Shown here piece after piece: positions 2,368 through 42,450 of a DNA stretch of 64,000 bases. Below the pieces are notes generated by a model. The model did no database searches. It saw only the letters and a list, made by a program, of their open reading frames with translations, and was not told where the DNA came from. This stretch comes from Candidatus Chisholmbacteria bacterium RIFCSPHIGHO2_01_FULL_52_32 (GTDB lineage Bacteria > Patescibacteriota > Microgenomatia > UBA1400 > Chisholmbacteraceae), in the NCBI GenBank assembly GCA_001816585.1, contig MHCJ01000003.1:82100-146099 (forward strand). Reading direction: 5' to 3'. The position numbers and the translations under genes were made by a program. The stretch's first letter is position 1. Every line of letters starts with the position of its first letter.

Positions 2368-3759
2368 TTGACGATGAGATTTACATACACTGAATGTATG
2401 GAGAAAGGGAGGTTTTCCGATTTCTTTGCCCGTGAGGATGTGATGGTGGTTTTAACCAGCTCACCTGCGGGGCTGGGACATGTACGGGTCACGGAAGCGC
2501 TGCGCGGGGGGTTGGAGGAAGGGGTGCGGGTGGAGGTGTTGGGACTTGAGGATCAGTCGGCTCAAGGGTTGCATCGGGCGGCAAGCCGAAACGTGATTTT
2601 GCGGGCAGTTATGGAGTTCGTTCAGAACAACCCATTGGTTGAGGAGAGTTTTTCAGAGCTGTATCGGGAGCGGCTGCGAAGAAAAGGCAAGGAAGCCTAC
2701 CATCGGCTGGTTGAGCTGGTCAAAAGACGACGGCCAAAACCCAAAGTGCTGTTGATTGTTTCCACCCATTTCGGTCTAGGATACCAGATAGCTGCGATCA
2801 AAAATAGGCTTGCCGAGGAGTTTAAACTGTGCGTGGTTTTGGCAGTGGTAGTGACCGACGATTCGCCGCAGAAGGTGTGGGGAGTGGTCGGTGCGGATTT
2901 TCTGTTTGTTCCAAGTCTAACCACAAAAGAATCTCTGGAAAGATACATGATGAGAATTACCAGAATTGTGCCGGAGGTGTTTGTAGTGCCGTATCCGGTT
3001 TCCGCAGATTTCTGTCAGCCTTTAACAAACAAAGCGTTTGCCGATCGGAAGTTGCAAGTCAATCCCCGGTTCAAAGAGCCGATGAAGATCATGATTCCAA
3101 TATCCGGTGCAGCCGTCCAATTGAACTATATTGAGGAAATGATTACTACATTAGAAAAGGAGAGGATTGCCGACATAACCGTTGTCTCTAGGGAATCAGA
3201 CTACACAAAACGGTTTTTGTCATGGTGCGGAGAGAGAAAATCGGTACGGGTGGTCGCGGAGATACAGGACCGGGATGTCGTCGCCGGCTATGAGAAGGAG
3301 TATGCCAACTCGGTATTCGGAGTCGAGATTACCAAACCCTCCGAGCAGGCTTTTAAGGCATTGATTACCCCGAAGCAGCGCGGTGGGGTCATCCTTCTTT
3401 TTTCGAATCCGGTCGGAAGGCAGGAGAATGATAACCTGGCGTTTTTGGTGCGGCACGATCTGTTGCCGTCTCCCGCTGATCGGGAGGTTCTCGGGAGATA
3501 TCTTTCTACCGGCGAGCGGAGGCTTATTGACGCAGCATTTTTAGAACGGGCGCAGCATTGGCGGGGGTTACTCCTCCCGTCTTCGGGAAGGGATGCCGGG
3601 AGGGCAATTTTGAAGCTTAGGCAGTGCGGGGTTTTGTCAGCGATGCTTGATTTTTCAGGGTACATGGACCACCCGGAATTGCGCAGCGATGGTGTCAGGA
3701 GGATTTGGAAGAAACTTGCGACAAGGGTGGGGGAGAAGTGCGGGATAGCAAGTAGCTAA
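2368..3759 (+). CDS. GT-B glycosyltransferase-like protein (MGDG synthase/UgtP-like N-terminus)
   Basis: 463-aa ORF. N-terminal 'VLTSSPAGLGHV' resembles the G-loop of MurG/MGDG-synthase family enzymes. Divergent from the upstream glycosyltransferase. The start may instead be the ATG at 2398. Confidence 0.45.
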   Translation: MTMRFTYTECMEKGRFSDFFAREDVMVVLTSSPAGLGHVRVTEALRGGLEEGVRVEVLGLEDQSAQGLHRAASRNVILRAVMEFVQNNPLVEESFSELYRERLRRKGKEAYHRLVELVKRRRPKPKVLLIVSTHFGLGYQIAAIKNRLAEEFKLCVVLAVVVTDDSPQKVWGVVGADFLFVPSLTTKESLERYMMRITRIVPEVFVVPYPVSADFCQPLTNKAFADRKLQVNPRFKEPMKIMIPISGAAVQLNYIEEMITTLEKERIADITVVSRESDYTKRFLSWCGERKSVRVVAEIQDRDVVAGYEKEYANSVFGVEITKPSEQAFKALITPKQRGGVILLFSNPVGRQENDNLAFLVRHDLLPSPADREVLGRYLSTGERRLIDAAFLERAQHWRGLLLPSSGRDAGRAILKLRQCGVLSAMLDFSGYMDHPELRSDGVRRIWKKLATRVGEKCGIASS

Positions 3760-3880
3760 TGGCTAATGGCTGATAGCTGATAGCAGATAGCATATAGCTA
3801 ATAGCTTATGGCTAATAGCGGATAGCAGATAGCGAGTAGCAAACGGCTGATGGCACATAGCGTTTAGGGTTTAGCGTATA
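3760..3880. repeat. Cryptic tandem array of (A/G)TAGC-type 5-6-mers (tagctaatggctaatggctgatagctgatagcagatagc…)
   Basis: Directly visible. The same family recurs at 15114-15230, 45835-45860 and 61110-61150. Confidence 0.6.
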
Positions 3881-3934
3881 GCGTACAGGATGTAGAAAGA
3901 TTGATGATTTATGAAGGTTTCTCATGGGGACTGT

Positions 3935-5065
3935 CTATGATTTTTGTGCGGCGGAGATGTCCCTGAGGATACGCTGCGGTTCAATCAACGGGGTGACGTG
4001 GAGGCCTTGCTCTTCTTTAAGGAAAACGACCTGGGGATTATCTGAGACTTCTTGCTCGAGTTCGTAACTCCTGGTTAAGCGATCGTTCTTTCCAGCCCAT
4101 ATGACTATTTTTCCTCCCTCTTTTACTTTCATCTGCTGCCAAGACTTTGCTTTTCGACAGACCTTGTCTAACTGAGCGTTGAAGATGGCAGATTTGATTT
4201 TATCCTGATGGGGGAGGTCTGGTGTTTTTCTTCCCCAGACCAACGAATAAGCGGGTAATCTGCCGAGCATTCCGGAGAATCCGCCGATCTCGTAGGCCAG
4301 GCCGGCAGCGAGCTCCATTCTCGATTGATCGACTGAACTGGCTGGGGAGAACAGGACGGCTTGGCTGACACGCTTTTGAAACGCCTGGTCGTTGAGGATC
4401 TCGCTGACGATAGGACCTCCGGTTGAGTCAGCCCAAAGCTCAATTTCTCCTTCTGGTGCAACTTGCCTTAGAGCACATTTGAAGAATGTGACATGGGGTT
4501 CGTAGTTCGGAGATCGGGAGGCCTTGTCGGCAAATTCCGCGGTCGTCCTTCCCAGGCTTGATTCCGGATAGCCAATGACTACAACTTTTCTTCCCATGAA
4601 AGCTAACTCCTGCGCTAGGCCACCCACAGGATCGATATCGGCAGAGATGCTGGGGATGAGATAGATTGGCGGTTTTTTCTCCGTTTCTAGGGTGGTCTGT
4701 GACTCCGGAGGATCGAGGATGAGGAGGCGGCTTGTCTGTGGGCCCAAGTCGGGGAGATTGACGGTGATTTCACCCTGGTTGAGGTAGCGACGGGCAATCT
4801 CGTCGCGGATGTGGGCTTCGGCGATGATGCGCTTGCGACCGTCGGGGTCGGTTTTTGGCAGTTCATAATAGCGGCGGAGAAGATCGGCTCTCACGTTGCG
4901 GTTAAGCAATGAGCGGTTGATCTCTCTGGGCTCTCCGGGGATGCGGCTTGGGTGGGTGGCAGCTCTGACGAGATACCAGAGCCTGTCGAACCGTTCGAGG
5001 AGGTTTCTCTCCGGGACTTCGGTTTCTTGAATGGGTGGATGTAGTTCTCCGTGCGCTTCGTTCAT
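3935..5065 (-). CDS. Alpha/beta-hydrolase-fold protein (hypothetical)
   Basis: The ORF track gives 3935..5206, but its first 47 codons are the reverse translation of tRNA-Trp ('AGPPGFEPG'). The start was therefore moved to Met48 (codon 5063-5065). The body has hydrolase-like composition; function unknown. Confidence 0.5.
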   Translation of the reverse strand: MNEAHGELHPPIQETEVPERNLLERFDRLWYLVRAATHPSRIPGEPREINRSLLNRNVRADLLRRYYELPKTDPDGRKRIIAEAHIRDEIARRYLNQGEITVNLPDLGPQTSRLLILDPPESQTTLETEKKPPIYLIPSISADIDPVGGLAQELAFMGRKVVVIGYPESSLGRTTAEFADKASRSPNYEPHVTFFKCALRQVAPEGEIELWADSTGGPIVSEILNDQAFQKRVSQAVLFSPASSVDQSRMELAAGLAYEIGGFSGMLGRLPAYSLVWGRKTPDLPHQDKIKSAIFNAQLDKVCRKAKSWQQMKVKEGGKIVIWAGKNDRLTRSYELEQEVSDNPQVVFLKEEQGLHVTPLIEPQRILRDISAAQKS

Positions 5066-5112
5066 GGAGTTTTCTTGGACATAGTATACATCTTGGGGTA
5101 AAATACAGGCAG

Positions 5113-5184
5113 AGGGCCATGATGTTAACGGCAGCATGGCGGTCTCCAAAACCGCTCGTCCAGGTTCGAATCCTGGTGGCCCTG
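5113..5184 (+). tRNA. trnW: tRNA-Trp (anticodon CCA)
   Basis: 72-nt cloverleaf folded by hand. Acceptor stem AGGGCCA/TGGCCCT. D-stem ATGT/GCAT with loop TAACGGCA. Anticodon stem GCGGT/ACCGC with loop CTCCAAA (anticodon CCA). T-arm CCAGG-TTCGAAT-CCTGG. Discriminator G. CCA is not encoded. Confidence 0.85.
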
Positions 5185-5267
5185 CAATGACTAGGTCATG
5201 AAACATTTGAGACTCTCAGCAGTCTCATGCCAGCTGATTTCCATTGCATTCGCTATCGAGCTCCCAA

Positions 5268-5303
5268 ATACTCATGGAGCGTGTATCGTGCGCTCATGAG
5301 TAT
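5268..5303 (+). other. Perfect 13-bp-stem hairpin (ATACTCATGGAGCG-tgtatcgtg-CGCTCATGAGTAT) 84 nt downstream of tRNA-Trp
   Basis: Inverted repeat seen directly. It is followed by a second GC-rich imperfect stem at 5304-5340 and has no T-run. It may be a processing or termination structure, or part of a small RNA. Confidence 0.4.
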
Positions 5304-5368
5304 ACTGGAGACCTCGCTCGGGTTCGGAGCCTCCGAGAGCTGCAAAAAGCATCTTGATGGAGTAAAAT

Positions 5369-5632
5369 ATGGTTATGAAGAATTGGAATACTGACGTTTC
5401 TCGTTTCAAATCACCTCAGCATAAGCGCCTTTGGGAACTCTCTCAGCTTATCAATTATGGCCTCGAAGGGCGTAAACTCAACAAACGCGAACTTGCTATA
5501 AATTGGGCCGATTTGAAACCACTGCTCGATCCTGAACGGGCAAGAATGTTAGAATTTATCCTATGGAGAAAACTGTACTCACTCCCAACCAACGCGCGGT
5601 TCTGGAATCTCTCGCCCAAGAAAAATACATAA
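5369..5632 (+). CDS. Small ORF upstream of and overlapping the AbiEii-like gene (candidate cognate antitoxin, truncated AbiEi-like?)
   Basis: 87-aa ORF ending 70 nt inside the toxin gene in another frame. The assignment is purely positional; no recognisable domain. Confidence 0.3.
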   Translation: MVMKNWNTDVSRFKSPQHKRLWELSQLINYGLEGRKLNKRELAINWADLKPLLDPERARMLEFILWRKLYSLPTNARFWNLSPKKNT

Positions 5633-6225
5633 CCGAAACCTTCTTCTTGTCCGGAGGAACTGCCCTTTCTGCATTTTATTTTAAACACAGAATCTCCGAA
5701 GACTTCGATCTTTTTTCCGAAAAGGTATACGAAGCTAAAAAAGTTGCTATCTGGGTGCAAAAGGCCGCAAAAAATCTCAAGGTTCAGAAAGCTGAACAAC
5801 AAAAACTCACTGGTCAGGATGTCTATTACTTCTCTTTTGGCAAAAACGACTTTGTTAAAGTAGATTTCTCGTATTTTCCGTTTCCTCACCTGGGAGAATT
5901 TACGAAATATCAAAAGCTGAGGATTTCGAGCCTTGAAGACCTTGCCGTGAACAAACTTCAGGCTATAGTAACGAGAAAAAGATCTAGAGATTACGTAGAT
6001 TTATACCTGTGTTTACGAACTCTCAAATGGTCTTCAGAAGATATGCAGAAATACTACAGGCTCAAGTTCGATATGCACGTCAGTTTTGAGCAACTTGCTA
6101 CTTCGTTTACTAACGTTGTTGATGCACACGACGCGCCAAAATTCTTGGGAAAGACATCCTGGGAGGTCGTGAGAAAATATTTTCTTTCCTTAGCCCAGGA
6201 ATTAAAAAGCAAAATTATTGAATGA
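5563..6225 (+). CDS. AbiEii/DUF1814-family nucleotidyltransferase (type IV TA toxin-like)
   Basis: 220 aa. Motif '…FFLSGGTALSAFYFKHRISEDFDLF…' matches the GGTAL…HR.SEDxD signature of AbiEii/AbiGii nucleotidyltransferases. Confidence 0.65.
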   Translation: MEKTVLTPNQRAVLESLAQEKYITETFFLSGGTALSAFYFKHRISEDFDLFSEKVYEAKKVAIWVQKAAKNLKVQKAEQQKLTGQDVYYFSFGKNDFVKVDFSYFPFPHLGEFTKYQKLRISSLEDLAVNKLQAIVTRKRSRDYVDLYLCLRTLKWSSEDMQKYYRLKFDMHVSFEQLATSFTNVVDAHDAPKFLGKTSWEVVRKYFLSLAQELKSKIIE

Positions 6226-6248
6226 TCTTGAAAATTGTGATGTTCAGG

Positions 6249-6278
6249 TAGGTTCGAACGTCGTCCATCAGGTGCTGC
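6249..6278. repeat. 30-bp direct repeat, copy 1 (taggttcgaacgtcgtccatcaggtgctgc)
   Basis: Identical 30-mer at 6684-6713. The two copies bracket ORF 6307..6681 exactly. Confidence 0.7.
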
Positions 6279-6306
6279 TATATAGCCTAAGTGATATACT
6301 TAATTT

Positions 6307-6681
6307 GTGAAGAGAAAATACCTAATTTTCTTTATAGTTCTAATCGCCTTTTTCCTCTTACTAATATTTAGACAAGGGTACTATCCCTGGGAACATATAA
6401 GCTGTATTTTTTCCAGAGGAGACTACCAGGGATTAGCAGGTCCGCTTGGCTCTCCCCCGCTCGGATTTAAATGCGTCCACACTTTTAGCGATGCAGGTAA
6501 AAAATGCTTCAGCAACAATGATTGTCAGGGAAATTGTCTGGTCACCAAAGATACAATTGTAGAAAAAACTGGACTACTAAAGTCCAAGGTCACTGGTGGA
6601 TTTGGAGCCTGCGAGGCAAACGATTTAAGATACCCATCCTATCCAGGTGATTTTGAAAATCCTCAAGGCTGGATAATCTAA
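6307..6681 (+). CDS. Small secreted/membrane-anchored Cys-rich protein (hypothetical), low-GC cassette
   Basis: 124 aa with an N-terminal hydrophobic segment and six Cys in the mature part. AT-rich relative to surroundings. Flanked by perfect 30-bp direct repeats. Confidence 0.5.
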   Translation: MKRKYLIFFIVLIAFFLLLIFRQGYYPWEHISCIFSRGDYQGLAGPLGSPPLGFKCVHTFSDAGKKCFSNNDCQGNCLVTKDTIVEKTGLLKSKVTGGFGACEANDLRYPSYPGDFENPQGWII

Positions 6682-6683
6682 AA

Positions 6684-6713
6684 TAGGTTCGAACGTCGTC
6701 CATCAGGTGCTGC
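6684..6713. repeat. 30-bp direct repeat, copy 2
   Basis: Identical to 6249-6278. Confidence 0.7.
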
Positions 6714-7035
6714 AACAGTCTTCTGGGATGTAACCTCTATCCTTCGACTACGCTCCCTTCGGCATTGCTCAGGGCAAGAAAGACCGGTTGGGGTTCGACT
6801 TGTGGTGTGCTTGTTGAACCATTCCCTCCGGCCCTGCACTTCGACGCGATTCTCTCGCTCAGTGCGAGGGAGTCGATGCGAAGTATAGCGGAGGGATGAG
6901 AAGTTTACCCTAAGCGAAGTCGAATGGGATTCCCTCCGGCCCTGCAAGGTGCCATTCGATAACTATAACTGGATCTAGCCAGTTGATACGCTTTGACTTC
7001 TTGAAATCCCTCCATAGATAATTTATAGTCAGGTC

Positions 7036-7329
7036 ATGTTAACAAAGACAGATTTAAAAGAAATCAGAAAAATAATAAGGGAAGAGGTTGAAACTGAGTC
7101 TGAAAATAATAAAAGTGAAATTCAGGCAGAAATGAAAATGAACATGATAAGAGTTGTTACGGAAATAAGAGAATTAAGTTCTCGGCTTAAGAATGTAGAA
7201 GTGAAGTTAAACAAAATGCAGAAAGACCTGAAATATTCAGTAAATTTCCTTGACAAATTTGGCTTGAAAATCCAAAGTAGGGTTGAAAGAATCGAAGCAC
7301 ATCTTCGTCTAGAACCCATTTCTTCTTAA
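7036..7329 (+). CDS. Small coiled-coil protein (hypothetical)
   Basis: 97 aa, K/E-rich with heptad-like composition. AT-rich. Confidence 0.4.
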   Translation: MLTKTDLKEIRKIIREEVETESENNKSEIQAEMKMNMIRVVTEIRELSSRLKNVEVKLNKMQKDLKYSVNFLDKFGLKIQSRVERIEAHLRLEPISS

Positions 7330-7511
7330 GCCAGTTCCCTTCAAGATTTACTGACCCCTGCCCGTTTTCAATGATGCTTCCTTCAATCTTCCGATGTCTT
7401 GGCCAAATTACTCCAGGATTGTCTTGACGGAGCGCAATCCATTCCGAGGCTGTTTTTAAAAAAACCTATAGCGCTTGACACCTATTTTAGCTGTGGTACG
7501 CTTGACTAAGC

Positions 7512-7931
7512 ATGGTAGAAATGCCATCGGTTGAGACCGCTCCAAAAATGGTCGCCCAAGACAAGGCTGCAGAAGAGCCCCATTTGCATACCGAGTTCGG
7601 CGCCATCAGCCCGGATGATGTCGGTATTTACGGAAGAGTGATCGGCCGCCTTCGTCAGCAACCTGATGCTGAAGGGGTATCAATCCTTATCCTTTCAAAG
7701 GGGGAGCGGTCTTTTGAAGGAAAGGATCTTACGATCCCTGAAGGGAAACTTGGGCTCATTTTTCAGGAGAACAAACCAGGGGCAATTGATGCCCGATTTT
7801 TTGGGGCGCTGTCCAGGGCACTTCAACTGGAGAAGGATGTTGAGAGCCGGAGGTTTGCGAAAATTGATGAACTCGCGAAGGCAAAAAGTGCACATCCAGA
7901 GGGTAATAAACCGAAACGCATGGCTGCTTAG
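7512..7931 (+). CDS. Hypothetical protein
   Basis: 139-aa ORF with ordinary composition. Confidence 0.45.
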   Translation: MVEMPSVETAPKMVAQDKAAEEPHLHTEFGAISPDDVGIYGRVIGRLRQQPDAEGVSILILSKGERSFEGKDLTIPEGKLGLIFQENKPGAIDARFFGALSRALQLEKDVESRRFAKIDELAKAKSAHPEGNKPKRMAA

Positions 7932-8079
7932 TCCGCTTCTGTTCATGTAGTCGCTCGGGTTTCTATATCGGCTGATCCAGCCGTCTCGCAATCCAGAGAG
8001 CGTTTTAGGTTGGATACAAGCGGAATTTTTGGTGAATATAGTTGCCCTGCTGTGCTAGACTATAAGCCTAAAGGTTGTT

Positions 8080-8898
8080 ATGCAAAGCCCTGAACAATCG
8101 AGCCAGAACTCGCATGTGAATTTTCGTGAGCTCCGCTATGGGCTACTCCCTGTGGGTGAACTCCTCATCCGCCTCACCGAGGCGAGCGGTGATGTTCATA
8201 CTCAGGAAGGTCTATCCAAAGCTTCCGCCATGCTCAGTCAAAGGGGAATGGTGGTTTTGGATGCCCACCTTGCACCCTTTGATATTATCGCAACCAGTAT
8301 TGCTCTGAGCGAGGGGTTGAAGGTTAGGAGTTGCGTGGCCCCGGTATCTGCCTACGATTACTATTTCCCGATCATTCGCCGGGGATTTTTTTCCAGGCTG
8401 GGAAAGATCAACGGTGTCGAGCTGTTTCCGGTGTATCGGGATCAAGACTTAGAACACTGGAAGAACAAACCGTTTCAGCCGCCCAAACAGGATTGGCGGC
8501 AGAGACGGGAAGCGGTGCTTTCGTACTATCGAAGGTCTCTCTCGGCTGTTGCGGAACCCGGTTCGCTGGTAGTGGTTGCCGCATACAACGGAGTCAACCG
8601 GCTCGGTGAGGATCTGGCCAACGGAGTGTCGCGGCTTTTAAAATCTGGAAGCCCGGCGCTGTGTTCCGTTTCCCGGTTCGATCAAAAGTCGGGTAAATTC
8701 CGTCTCTTCACGGCAGAGGACTTGCTTGAGTTTCCGCAGGAGGTGACAAGAAATGAGCTCCATCGTGCAGTGCATACCCAACATCGGGAAATACTGGGGC
8801 GCATTGGAGCGATGCGAGGAGCGGGGGAAATAGCACTTGAGGCCCGAGGACAAGAGTTTAGTCTGGACAGTGGCCCGGATTCTTCGAACTTAGGGTAA
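8080..8898 (+). CDS. Acyltransferase-like protein (HX4D motif 'HLAPFD')
   Basis: 272 aa. It has an HxxxxD motif typical of lysophospholipid acyltransferases. A further PlsC-like acyltransferase and a possible third (8890..9720) lie nearby. Confidence 0.4.
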   Translation: MQSPEQSSQNSHVNFRELRYGLLPVGELLIRLTEASGDVHTQEGLSKASAMLSQRGMVVLDAHLAPFDIIATSIALSEGLKVRSCVAPVSAYDYYFPIIRRGFFSRLGKINGVELFPVYRDQDLEHWKNKPFQPPKQDWRQRREAVLSYYRRSLSAVAEPGSLVVVAAYNGVNRLGEDLANGVSRLLKSGSPALCSVSRFDQKSGKFRLFTAEDLLEFPQEVTRNELHRAVHTQHREILGRIGAMRGAGEIALEARGQEFSLDSGPDSSNLG

Positions 8899-9863: not shown

Positions 9864-10727
9864 ATGGAACAAGAAGATCAACCTCAACCCAGCGCTCCTG
9901 CCGGATCCGGCGGTACTTCGAAATGGAAGAAGGCTTTTTTGAGTCTGGTTGTCGTTACTGTTCTCTTGATGGTCGGCGGCGGAATACTCTGGTTCGGGCT
10001 GCAGAAAGCCTCAAAATCACCATCCCGGGAGGGGGCAGCCAGTACGGAGGCGGTGAGTGAGGAAGCTACTTCCGCAAACGAGCTTGTGACGGATACAGAC
10101 GCGACACCCAGCGTTACCCCTCAACCGACCAAGACTCCGACCACGGCACCATTACCCACACCAACTCCAACACTCGCTCCAACACCAACCCCGACTACCC
10201 TGATTGAGACGTTCGACTCAAGCGCTGCGCTGGACGGATTCCGAGCGAGTAATGCGGGGGGCAACGCTGGACTTGAGCTGCGAGCGGGACGGAACGCTAC
10301 CCTGACAACGCGCGGGTTTGTCAGCTTCGGTATCGGGGAGATTCCCGATGGTGCGACCATCGAGCAGGCGACTTTGAAAATATACCAAGTGAGCGTGGTC
10401 GGGGATCCCTATGGGGCGGGCTTAAGGGTAATGCTTGACCACCTTGACTATGGTACAACCCTTGAGCATGCGGACTTTAGTGCGGCTTCGTTATCTTCCA
10501 GCTTTACCACACTTTCCACAAATGCGAGCGTCGGCTGGAAGGAAGTTGACGTAACCGATCAGGTACGCAGTGATCTCTCAAACAATCGGGAACGCAGCCA
10601 GTATCGGCTGCATATGGCTACCGAGACTGTCGGTGGGACGGTGACGGGTGACTTTGCCTATTTTGAAGCGGCGGATAATTCAACGGGAAGCGGGTATACC
10701 CCGCAGCTTGTCGTCCGCTACCATTAG
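9864..10727 (+). CDS. Membrane-anchored protein with Pro/Thr-rich linker and C-terminal globular domain (hypothetical)
   Basis: The ORF track starts at 9798; Met at 9864 is preferred because it follows the promoter. It has a TM segment (LSLVVVTVLLMVGGGILWF), then a 'TPTPT…PTPTPT' linker, then a ~200-aa domain. Confidence 0.55.
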   Translation: MEQEDQPQPSAPAGSGGTSKWKKAFLSLVVVTVLLMVGGGILWFGLQKASKSPSREGAASTEAVSEEATSANELVTDTDATPSVTPQPTKTPTTAPLPTPTPTLAPTPTPTTLIETFDSSAALDGFRASNAGGNAGLELRAGRNATLTTRGFVSFGIGEIPDGATIEQATLKIYQVSVVGDPYGAGLRVMLDHLDYGTTLEHADFSAASLSSSFTTLSTNASVGWKEVDVTDQVRSDLSNNRERSQYRLHMATETVGGTVTGDFAYFEAADNSTGSGYTPQLVVRYH

Positions 10728-41340: not shown

Positions 41341-42450
41341 ATGGCTGAAATCGATCAGACTGAACGTGCTTACCGAGCGGCGGTGTATGAAGTGGATGGG
41401 ATCGGGCCGGCGAGGATGAAGGTTTTGTTGTCTGCCTTTGGCAGTGCAGAGAAGGTTTGGGGAACGGAAGAGAAGAAATTTCGTGAGATTGGGCTTTCCG
41501 GGGCGATTGTATCGGAGATCCGTAAAAAACGGGCAACAGTAGAACCGAAAAATCATCTTGCGGCTTTAGCAAAGCTTGGGATCCGTGTTTTAGTCATAGA
41601 AGACGAAGAGTACCCGGAACTTCTTAAAAAGATTGATGATTCCCCGCAAGTCTTATTTGTCAGAGGGCACTTTGATGCTTCGGACGCACGGGCAATCGCG
41701 GTGGTGGGAACGCGGAAGCCGACACCCTACGGGAGAGAGGTGACCGAGCGGTTGGTTGAACAATTGGTGGCGCTGGGATTTACCATCGTGTCGGGATTGG
41801 CTCGGGGAATAGACGGGATTGCCCATCGGACCGCTTTGGCAAGCGGAGGGAGGACCATTGGGGTTTTGGCGGGAGGGGTGGATCGGGTTTACCCGCCGGA
41901 GCATGTGGGGCTTGCGGAGGATATCTCAAAGCACGGAGCCGTGGTTTCCGAATTTGCGCCGGGTAAGTTGCCGATACCGGGGAATTTTCCGGCGAGGAAT
42001 CGCGTTATTTCCGGGCTGGCTTTGGGGGTGTTGGTCACGGAGGGGGCGGCAAAATCGGGGAGCAAAATTACCGCTACCTGGGCAGCGGAACAGGGGAGGG
42101 AGGTGTTTGCGGTACCGGGGCCGATAACAAGCCACCTTTCGCAGGCGCCAGCCGACTTGATCAAACTTGGGGCAAAGGTGGTGACGGATGTTTCGGATAT
42201 TTTAGAGGAACTTCGCGTACAGGTCGCACCTGTACGCGCTGGCGAAGTACGGGAGGTTGAAATTCCATTAGAGAATCTCGGTGCAGACGAGCGGAAGGTA
42301 TGGGAGGCGCTTGCGGACGGGAGTTTGCAGGCGGATGATCTTGTGCGAAAAGTTGGAATGGAAACGAGCGCCGTTTCGGCGATCCTCACGATGCTTGAGC
42401 TTCGGGGGTTGGTGAAGCATCTTGGGGGAATGGTTTACTGTAGAAAGTGA
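41341..42450 (+). CDS. dprA: DNA processing protein DprA (Smf)
   Basis: Rossmann-like core '…GRTIGVLAGGVDRVYPPEH…' with a C-terminal wHTH. Confidence 0.85.
   Translation: MAEIDQTERAYRAAVYEVDGIGPARMKVLLSAFGSAEKVWGTEEKKFREIGLSGAIVSEIRKKRATVEPKNHLAALAKLGIRVLVIEDEEYPELLKKIDDSPQVLFVRGHFDASDARAIAVVGTRKPTPYGREVTERLVEQLVALGFTIVSGLARGIDGIAHRTALASGGRTIGVLAGGVDRVYPPEHVGLAEDISKHGAVVSEFAPGKLPIPGNFPARNRVISGLALGVLVTEGAAKSGSKITATWAAEQGREVFAVPGPITSHLSQAPADLIKLGAKVVTDVSDILEELRVQVAPVRAGEVREVEIPLENLGADERKVWEALADGSLQADDLVRKVGMETSAVSAILTMLELRGLVKHLGGMVYCRK

Follow-up and report, generated by a model that had tools for sequence, protein, structure and literature searches.

Directly downstream of the tRNA-Trp gene of Candidatus Chisholmbacteria bacterium RIFCSPHIGHO2_01_FULL_52_32 (contig MHCJ01000003.1), a member of the Patescibacteria or candidate phyla radiation (CPR), lies a segment that is probably a small islet, assembled at the 3' end of the tRNA gene from inserted small units in which no integrase gene was found, and equipped with a MenT/AbiE-like module. 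We put the probability of this reading at roughly 0.6. The segment occupies positions 5186-6946 of the 64,000-nt stretch analysed here, which we call the window and to which all coordinates refer; the islet features described below lie on its forward strand. Their order is tRNA-Trp, a first cassette with a small gene (orf87) and a gene for an AbiEii-like nucleotidyltransferase (NTase), a 30-nt repeat (R1), a second cassette (orf124), a second copy of the repeat (R2), and two segments free of open reading frames (ORFs), both of which terminate in a displaced 3' fragment of tRNA-Trp (R3 and R4). An initial annotation made from the sequence had proposed an island-like accessory stretch 3' of tRNA-Trp. 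Both base composition and cargo support that proposal: GC content is 0.38-0.43 across 5200-6800, the minimum of the window when read in 800-nt segments and about 3-4 standard deviations (sd) under the window mean of 0.516 (sd 0.034), and the cargo differs in the closest relative with the same left flank. The relatives' loci and database contigs compared with the window carry the labels L001-L049.

Displaced tRNA tails, repeats and the second cassette

The anchor of the islet, on its attL side, is a tRNA-Trp(CCA) gene at 5113-5185 (ARAGORN; Rfam RF00005, 54 bits), whose own 3' part reads GGTTCGAATCCTGGTGGCCCTGCA. At the opposite side, the roughly 320 nt of 6714-7035 hold no conserved ORF and, in agreement with the internal repeats annotated there, contain a perfect 18-nt repeat at 6821-6838 and 6929-6946. 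Both copies correspond to the 3' end of the tRNA-Trp gene of a relative, L049, which ends in TTGGGGGTTCGATTCCCTCCGGCCCTGCA. R4 (6928-6946, GATTCCCTCCGGCCCTGCA) agrees with that end at 19 of 19 nt, with a score of 38, and the matching part of R3 (6821-6838) at 18 of 18 nt, with a score of 36; shuffled controls gave a mean of 19.9 (sd 2.3) and a maximum of 32, which places the matches at about z = 8. In full, R3 (6788-6838) was defined by alignment with L049 as TTGGGGTTCG, a 23-nt insert and ATTCCCTCCGGCCCTGCA, where TTGGGGTTCG prolongs the match upstream across an insertion in the T-loop. ORF-free filler separates R3 from R4 (6839-6927) and folds into a strong long hairpin at 6839-6883 (z = -2.5). 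Because of their exact 18-19-nt match to the L049 allele, R3 and R4 are displaced tRNA-Trp 3' fragments, and a displaced fragment of this kind is a hallmark of integration into a tRNA gene (PMC4383910). The initial annotation had found no attR copy of the tRNA end and considered the island boundary unclear. Two such copies exist, at 6821-6838 and 6928-6946, and R4 is the best candidate for the distal (attR) end from its sequence, which would put the boundary at 6946, near the 7030 at which the annotated stretch ended.

A search for the tRNA-Trp 3' end downstream depends on the allele that is used. The exact matches were obtained with the allele of L049, while the window's own 3' end scored 20-23 against the downstream region, within or barely above the shuffles and the real-sequence controls. 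The 9-mers that the window tRNA-Trp has in common with the repeats, AGGTTCGAA in the 30-nt copies and GGCCCTGCA in the 18-nt copies, are at best marginal. No other tRNA-tail relic was significant, whether at 5320-5347 (score 19, against a shuffle mean of 19.9), at 7351-7361 and 8041-8058, two candidates that were rejected, or elsewhere past orf97, the next ORF beyond R4. Rfam models run over 4800-8300 recovered the tRNA alone, with matches in the ORF-free DNA at chance level.

R1 (6249-6278), a degenerate att-like element, and R2 (6684-6713) are the left and right copies of a perfect 30-nt direct repeat, TAGGTTCGAACGTCGTCCATCAGGTGCTGC. A repeat of this quality appeared in none of 100 shuffles, and there are just two copies in the 64-kb window. 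The T-loop-like segment AGGTTCGAA of R1 is identical to tRNA-Trp 5160-5168, and the gapped alignment of R1 with the tRNA 3' end scores 20-23 against a shuffle mean of 17.8 (sd 2.1); the likeness of R1 to the 3' end of the window tRNA is only suggestive. Since orf124 sits between two identical copies, the R element would itself be a recombination site. It also recurs in relatives, with 27 of 30 positions in L013 and split by a 32-nt insert in L049.

Between the repeats, orf124 (6307-6681) encodes a small protein of 124 aa, the cargo of the second cassette, with a hydrophobic N-terminal segment, six Cys residues and homologues at 61-63% identity, as expected from the Cys-rich mini-protein gene annotated at this place. 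The cassette had been described as repeat-bracketed, and perfect 30-nt repeats do flank orf124; rather than standing isolated, it is one unit of a cassette array. A putative extended -10 element, TGaTATACT at 6292-6300, can be read from the sequence seven bases before the GTG start of orf124. Boxes of the form TGnTAYAMT recur a few bases past the tRNA end or a repeat, right before the first cassette gene, in L049 (minus strand, ~105-113), L017 (~5790-5800), L046 (9983-9993) and L018 (~5975-5985), and this recurrence points to cassettes that each carry in or acquire a promoter of their own.

L049 is the closest relative with the same left flank: its hydrolase gene, whose product is 64% identical to that of the window, is followed by trnW, and the gene beyond the hydrolase sits where the window has a 453-aa gene. 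Beside trnW, L049 carries an unrelated 130-aa ORF on the other strand, then R with its 32-nt insert, and then another small ORF. In this one relative, therefore, the cargo is not conserved and element R is. More distant relatives lack the hydrolase-trnW linkage, so that the gene order next to trnW is not a conserved one. Two further comparisons are uninformative, namely a single distant Daviesbacteria locus found by hydrolase synteny in GTDB, which has no tRNA, and hydrolase homologues at 45-47% identity, which lie in other contexts. If the locus were an ordinary core-genome neighbourhood, with the gene pair inherited vertically and the repeats incidental, its complete identity in all contigs of the source population would be easily understood. 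We nevertheless regard this explanation as very improbable, given that the cargo differs at the same site in L049, that R3 and R4 match a tRNA tail exactly, that the perfect 30-nt repeat never arose in shuffles, and that GC falls some 3-4 sd below the window mean.

In a second relative, L013/L029, the AbiEii protein is 69% identical to that of the window, and a CBM96-like gene lies downstream, as in the window. In L013, an R half-site, TAGGTTCGAAC, comes directly after the AbiEii stop codon and the 27/30 copy of R follows 3.3 kb on; the block between them consists of toxin-antitoxin modules (PIN and BrnT/CopG), and YafQ/RelB comes next. As its sequence suggests, this half-site junction may have arisen by a crossover within the palindromic TTCGAA core. 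Alignment of the L013 segment after AbiEii with window 6714-6946 was tried and gave nothing convincing. A second repeat family, TAAATCGCGYGCAAAAAA, is found at three gene-block borders in L013 (1184-1201, 3090-3107 and ~4495), and the start of the L013 contig, ahead of orf87, carries the C-terminal end of an insertion-sequence-type transposase together with a DUF3800 gene.

The window is identical to contig MHCM01000003.1 (GCA_001816955.1) and to many groundwater metagenome contigs, and within the source population every contig shows the locus with 100% identity. More than 10 assemblies made independently agree on this sequence, so that misassembly cannot be the source of the repeats. L007, an older scaffold of the same population, has N gaps where an unrelated recR-like fragment has been joined in at a short common sequence, ATTTGTGAA (L007 2240-2360); its orf124 also has a 3' end that is 16 nt longer, immediately ahead of the right-hand 30-nt repeat (L007 ~2729-2752). 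Contigs L008 and L012 terminate exactly at or beside a repeat copy. The L007 variants and these contig ends hint at population heterogeneity at cassette borders.

Between the tRNA and the first cassette lies an ORF-free spacer (5186-5368; fold z = -2.5) with two hairpins. The one annotated after trnW is present at ~5267-5302, with 9+5 pairs and one bulge, and a smaller one of 7 bp occupies 5208-5227. A 55-aa ORF at 5227-5394, called by some pipelines, matches only identical contigs and is not conserved; the public gene calls of L001-L012 omit the conserved orf87, and some of them substitute this ORF. On the other side of the tRNA, several public gene calls stretch the hydrolase through it to 423 aa (3935-5206). 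This ORF crossing the tRNA had been taken for an artefact of the ORF track, and rightly so, as homologues begin at the Met at 5065. Tandem repeats occur further to the left, with about 20 copies of the heptanucleotide ATAGCNR at 3744-3884, in the gap that separates the hydrolase gene from the 453-aa gene, and five of AAAGACT at 2297-2336, intergenic and upstream of the 453-aa gene. Past R4, orf97 (7036-7329) encodes 97 aa of coiled-coil-like sequence. Its GC of 0.313 is the lowest of the region, promoter-like hexamers lie directly 5' of it (6993-7029), and no significant family match was found in Pfam, NCBIfam, PADLOC or PHROG; orf97 may be a further foreign cassette.

The NTase and its small partner

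The first cassette consists of two genes, a small ORF (orf87, 5369-5632) that overlaps an AbiEii/DUF1814 gene (5563-6225), in the arrangement annotated earlier; the small ORF proves to be a conserved partner gene. The 220-aa product of the larger gene, a putative toxin, matches Pfam AbiEii (PF08843) with 63.7 bits (cut-off 22.5; E = 3e-17) and is matched by 22 PADLOC AbiEii models. Among 16 homologues, with identities down to 29%, the motifs G31-G32-T33, S45-E-D47-x-D49, K99-x-D101-F and N130-K131...R138...D143..D146 are invariant or nearly so, and the Ser-x-Asp equivalent to that of MenT (Ser45 in S-E-D-x-D) is invariant. The DUF1814 family is defined by four motifs, the polymerase-beta motifs I and II and the C-terminal motifs III and IV (PMC7450476), to which GGT, S-x-D-x-D, K-x-D-F and NK...R...D..D of the 220-aa protein correspond. 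The catalytic motif, whose absence on proper alignment would have spoken against the initial annotation, is kept throughout. The AlphaFold2 (AF2) model is confident, with a predicted local distance difference test (pLDDT) value of 91.7, and shows the bi-lobed NTase fold of MenT or JHP933; Foldseek matches it to JHP933 of H. pylori (4ok0/4o8s, 7e-8), TglT/MenT3 Rv1045 (6j7n, 1e-5) and MenT1 (8an4, 9e-5). Named homologues belong to Woesebacteria and 'Patescibacteria group' metagenome-assembled genomes (MAGs). The protein is a complete, bona fide DUF1814/AbiEii nucleotidyltransferase.

Upstream of it, orf87 overlaps the NTase gene by 70 nt and is missing from the NCBI and ENA annotations of the contig. 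Judged by its conservation, orf87 is a real partner gene of the NTase and the representative of a new family. Its nine database homologues measure 85-87 aa and have 27 invariant positions in common, and tblastn detects homologues in about 20 independent loci, each time ahead of an AbiEii homologue. In these loci the orf87 stop lies 52-88 nt past the homologous ATG of the NTase gene, mostly by exactly 70 nt, and out of frame with it. Searches of Pfam, NCBIfam, PADLOC and PHROG returned zero family matches for orf87. Its AF2 model has four helices at a pLDDT of 68, and the product is predicted to be a small helical protein that would act as antitoxin or regulator.

The pair is a two-gene operon with a small partner that is co-conserved and translationally linked, and it has the architecture of a toxin-antitoxin pair; from this we infer toxicity of the NTase, its neutralisation by orf87, and a tRNA target. 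The initial annotation had placed it among the AbiEii toxins of type IV toxin-antitoxin systems. The family assignment holds, and type IV is not established, as the partner is not an AbiEi antitoxin. Strict AbiE systems have an upstream winged-helix AbiEi/COG5340 protein, in whose place the window has 87 aa; because this antitoxin is missing, orf87-AbiEii is not AbiE in the strict sense.

Its nearest functional analogue is MenA1-MenT1. In that system a 68-aa protein precedes the toxin, and DUF1814 toxins at large pair with diverse antitoxins (PMC7450476); autophosphorylation of the active-site Thr/Ser is set off there when the small antitoxin binds (PMC11375011). With the MenAT and AbiE systems (PMC7450476, PMC10435456, PMC11375011) the window NTase shares the DUF1814 motifs I-IV and the Ser-x-Asp active-site segment, and with MenA1-MenT1 in particular the small gene upstream of the toxin, besides the fold that matches MenT1 and TglT/MenT3. 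Unlike in those systems, the partner is neither AbiEi/COG5340 nor a MazE-like MenA1 and belongs to a new helical family of 85-87 aa, the two genes share a conserved 70-nt overlap, and the toxin is short (220 aa), being nearest in structure to H. pylori JHP933. The first cassette would most likely act in a MenAT/AbiE-like manner, with the NTase blocking translation by modifying tRNA 3' ends. With its translation coupled to that of the NTase by the conserved 70-nt overlap, the helical orf87 protein would neutralise the NTase by binding it, possibly inducing autophosphorylation of Ser45 by analogy with the 7.4-kDa MenA1. Such a module could stabilise the islet and give defence by abortive infection. 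In chromosomal integrons, toxin-antitoxin cassettes stabilise arrays.

Cassette arrays at other tRNA genes

Homologues of both cassettes of the window occur in repeat-separated series next to other tRNA genes. In the locus L023/L035, on contigs of 588 and 826 kb, a tRNA-Asp(GTC) gene interrupted by a group I intron (Rfam RF00028, 82 bits; L023 505-708, L035 2508-2711) is followed by at least 12 direct repeats, which are degenerate copies of the tRNA from T-loop to 3' end together with 20 nt of flank. The sequence CCGCTCCAGACTTTAGGCACAAAA is identical in the tRNA-Asp flank and in the repeats, and the L023 repeats score 41/35/32/32 against tRNA-Asp, compared with at most 19 for other tRNAs. Between the repeats lie cassettes of one to three genes; orf87-AbiEii is one of these cassettes, and the other cargo includes APH-like, cupin, NUDIX, exo/endonuclease-phosphatase and MerR+DUF4325 genes. 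Array units measure 0.3-1.5 kb, and the repeats are homogeneous within an array and specific to it. Because of the intron, ARAGORN misses the tRNA-Asp that anchors the array.

A group I intron interrupts tRNA-Asp(GTC) in a second lineage as well, L017 (5557-5738; RF00028, 59 bits). This Woesebacteria MAG is syntenic with L023, with flanking PolX and LysM proteins that are 58% and 45% identical, and has orf87-AbiEii as its sole cassette, directly after the tRNA-Asp. L046 shows the same arrangement behind a syntenic tRNA-Asp (9896-9967) that is intron-less and has an odd T-arm. A cassette-level polymorphism distinguishes two populations, L023 and L024: on the downstream side of one repeat their sequences agree completely, and on its upstream side the cassettes differ (L024 139-500; L023 7606-7662 and 9672-10033), with an 84%-identical DUF4325 paralogue in one and a NUDIX block in the other, so that the breakpoint falls within the repeat. 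In L019, four cassettes separated by repeats lie 3' of tRNA-Glu, and the last of them is a homologue of orf124 (63%).

Several further likenesses were considered and rejected. The L019 repeats could not be equated with the tail of their own tRNA-Glu, as the shared GTGGG(G)TCAC and the flank TAGCCTCA give a score of 18, which is only suggestive. Homology of the window 30-mer to the L023 repeat fared no better, since an nhmmer profile of the latter misses the window R even at E <= 100, and the repeats are accordingly array-specific. Flanking direct repeats around orf87-AbiEii, sought in 12 loci, were significant in L023 alone. The other tRNA genes in the same loci have no such arrays.

These arrays invite comparison with integrons. 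They could represent a dedicated integron-like capture platform of CPR bacteria, in which the tRNA 3' end corresponds to attI and the tail copies to attC, and mini-cassettes with promoters of their own are inserted and shuffled by a specific recombinase whose gene lies elsewhere. Arrays that reach at least 12 units, each 0.3-1.5 kb long, and whose repeats are homogeneous and peculiar to the array would suit such a platform, as would cargo typical of chromosomal integrons (toxin-antitoxin, NUDIX, cupin, APH and small unknown proteins), the occurrence of one cassette in different arrays and the absence of integrase remnants inside the arrays. The likeness to chromosomal integrons and to integrase-less integron clusters (CALINs) extends to the one-directional series of short repeats with cassettes of 1-3 genes. 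On the other hand, the repeats here derive from a tRNA tail and do not fold like attC: single-stranded folds of the window, L023 and L019 repeats, taken on both strands as candidate attC-like hairpins, gave z from -0.7 to +0.6, about 0, and no GTTRRRY/RYYYAAC pair, by which integron attC sites are recognised, is visible in the repeats. There is no intI and no attI/Pc arrangement, no integrase was found adjacent to the arrays, cassettes stand in both orientations with their own promoter-like boxes, and the whole case comprises one strong array (L023) and two short ones, in loci whose other tRNAs have none. We consider a dedicated platform improbable.

Proposed assembly of the islet and comparison with known systems

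Phage_integrase is absent from the islet ORFs, from the precomputed Pfam calls from -4.4 to +16 kb and from 20 further window ORFs, a search that extended neither to the other ORFs of the window nor to the genome beyond it. Neither intI nor another integrase was found in the arrays or flanks of the window, L023/L035, L017 and L019. A prophage remnant is not supported either, as the orf87 family and the core of the 30-mer are absent from viral collections and PHROG was negative. In the reading that we prefer, an islet of small inserted units, these would have entered by site-specific recombination at the tRNA gene, in its T-loop or 3' part, or at relics of it. Since no recombinase was found among the window genes checked, it would act in trans, and the small units would have been served in this way or moved en bloc by accretion. 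The islet itself is presumably mobile, to judge from the comparisons with other loci.

A serious rival to ongoing insertion, although one we think rather unlikely, holds that the relics are old, that no site-specific recombination takes place today, and that homologous recombination following the uptake of DNA exchanges the cassettes, anchored by the homology of the conserved tRNA gene, the repeats and the core genes on either side. This would agree with the lack of an integrase in the examined window genes and in any array flank, with the DprA encoded at 41341-42450, a recombination mediator of natural transformation, and with the L024/L023 breakpoint within a repeat, which homologous exchange would produce as well. 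Anchors of 30-50 nt are, however, short for RecA-dependent exchange; the L013 junction, where TAGGTTCGAAC is followed by unrelated sequence, looks like a crossover in the short palindromic TTCGAA core; and the relics must in any case stem originally from integration at the tRNA.

Some observations weigh against the islet of inserted units as we have described it. No recombinase was found in the window genes checked or in the arrays, and no excised circle or empty site was observed. The window's own tRNA-Trp resembles R1-R4 at a chance-to-marginal level, and R3 and R4 fit the allele of a relative whose tRNA-Trp differs from that of the window in the 5' half too; because of this fit, a simple history in which the host tail was displaced by an incoming element accords poorly with the data. 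R1 and R2 look older than R3 and R4 yet sit nearer the tRNA, an order with the older-looking R proximal and the exact tails distal that points to en-bloc transfer of a pre-assembled composite or to insertion at a secondary site. The L023 repeat profile does not detect the window R, and orf87-AbiEii lies away from any tRNA in about half of the loci whose upstream sequence is long enough to tell. As for the module, the AF2 fold of orf87 has no match in the PDB, and no antitoxin or DNA-binding fold can be recognised in it.

The islet can be set beside two kinds of known tRNA-associated islands. Islander islands are tRNA-gene islands defined by a displaced tRNA 3' fragment (PMC4383910), and tandem arrays and cis-mobilizable elements arise at tRNA genes by accretion (PMC5704250). 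Like them, the islet is bounded on one side by an intact tRNA, the 3' part of which recurs in direct copies between units and at the far end, copies that resemble the resident allele only marginally; its base composition is foreign, and its cargo varies among relatives, being different at the same site in the one relative compared, L049. It differs in that no integrase gene lies inside it or was found among the window genes checked, in that its units are only 0.1-1.1 kb long (L023 having at least 12 tiny units), and in that its displaced fragments fit a relative's tRNA allele better than the resident one. Tycheposons are the tRNA-flanked islands of Prochlorococcus (bioRxiv 10.1101/2020.12.28.424599). 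They resemble the present case in residing in a streamlined genome, where successive insertions at a tRNA push older units inward, partial tRNAs are scattered and cargo-only remnants occur; the tRNA linkage and the partial tRNA copies are present in the window too. They differ from it by their tyrosine recombinase and replication module, neither of which was found among the genes checked here, by units that are far larger, and by phylum, which here is the Patescibacteria/CPR.

What is already known, then, is integration at tRNA genes, partial tRNA repeats, tandem accretion and cis-mobilizable remnants. Unusual are the tiny unit size, the lack of any integrase trace, the length of the arrays in relatives, the reuse of one cassette at more than one tRNA, and the phylum. 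Our literature search returned no description of such arrays in CPR bacteria, which is not proof that none exists. We tentatively advance a broader possibility, in which CPR bacteria would gather integrase-less, promoter-bearing mini-cassettes of 0.3-1.5 kb serially at the 3' part of tRNA genes by means of a recombinase encoded elsewhere. Tail copies would separate the cassettes in arrays of one to at least 12 units, with the window islet as a short example; the cargo would be toxin-antitoxin and defence modules, small secreted proteins and small enzymes, and orf87-AbiEii would circulate between arrays on different tRNAs (Trp, Asp).

For the toxin family, the module described here adds a small partner family to the MenT/AbiEii toxins and is useful for testing how general antitoxin-induced autophosphorylation is. 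For CPR bacteria, which have tiny genomes and few described mobile elements, the exchange of accessory and defence genes is largely unexplained. If the broader possibility is true, the tRNA-anchored array of minimal cassettes would be a concrete mechanism of such exchange, and one that is easily searched for, by looking for tRNA genes behind which the tRNA tail recurs in several copies. The same mechanism would account for genes of this kind being overlooked, as public annotation of the present locus omits orf87 and fuses the neighbouring gene with the tRNA.

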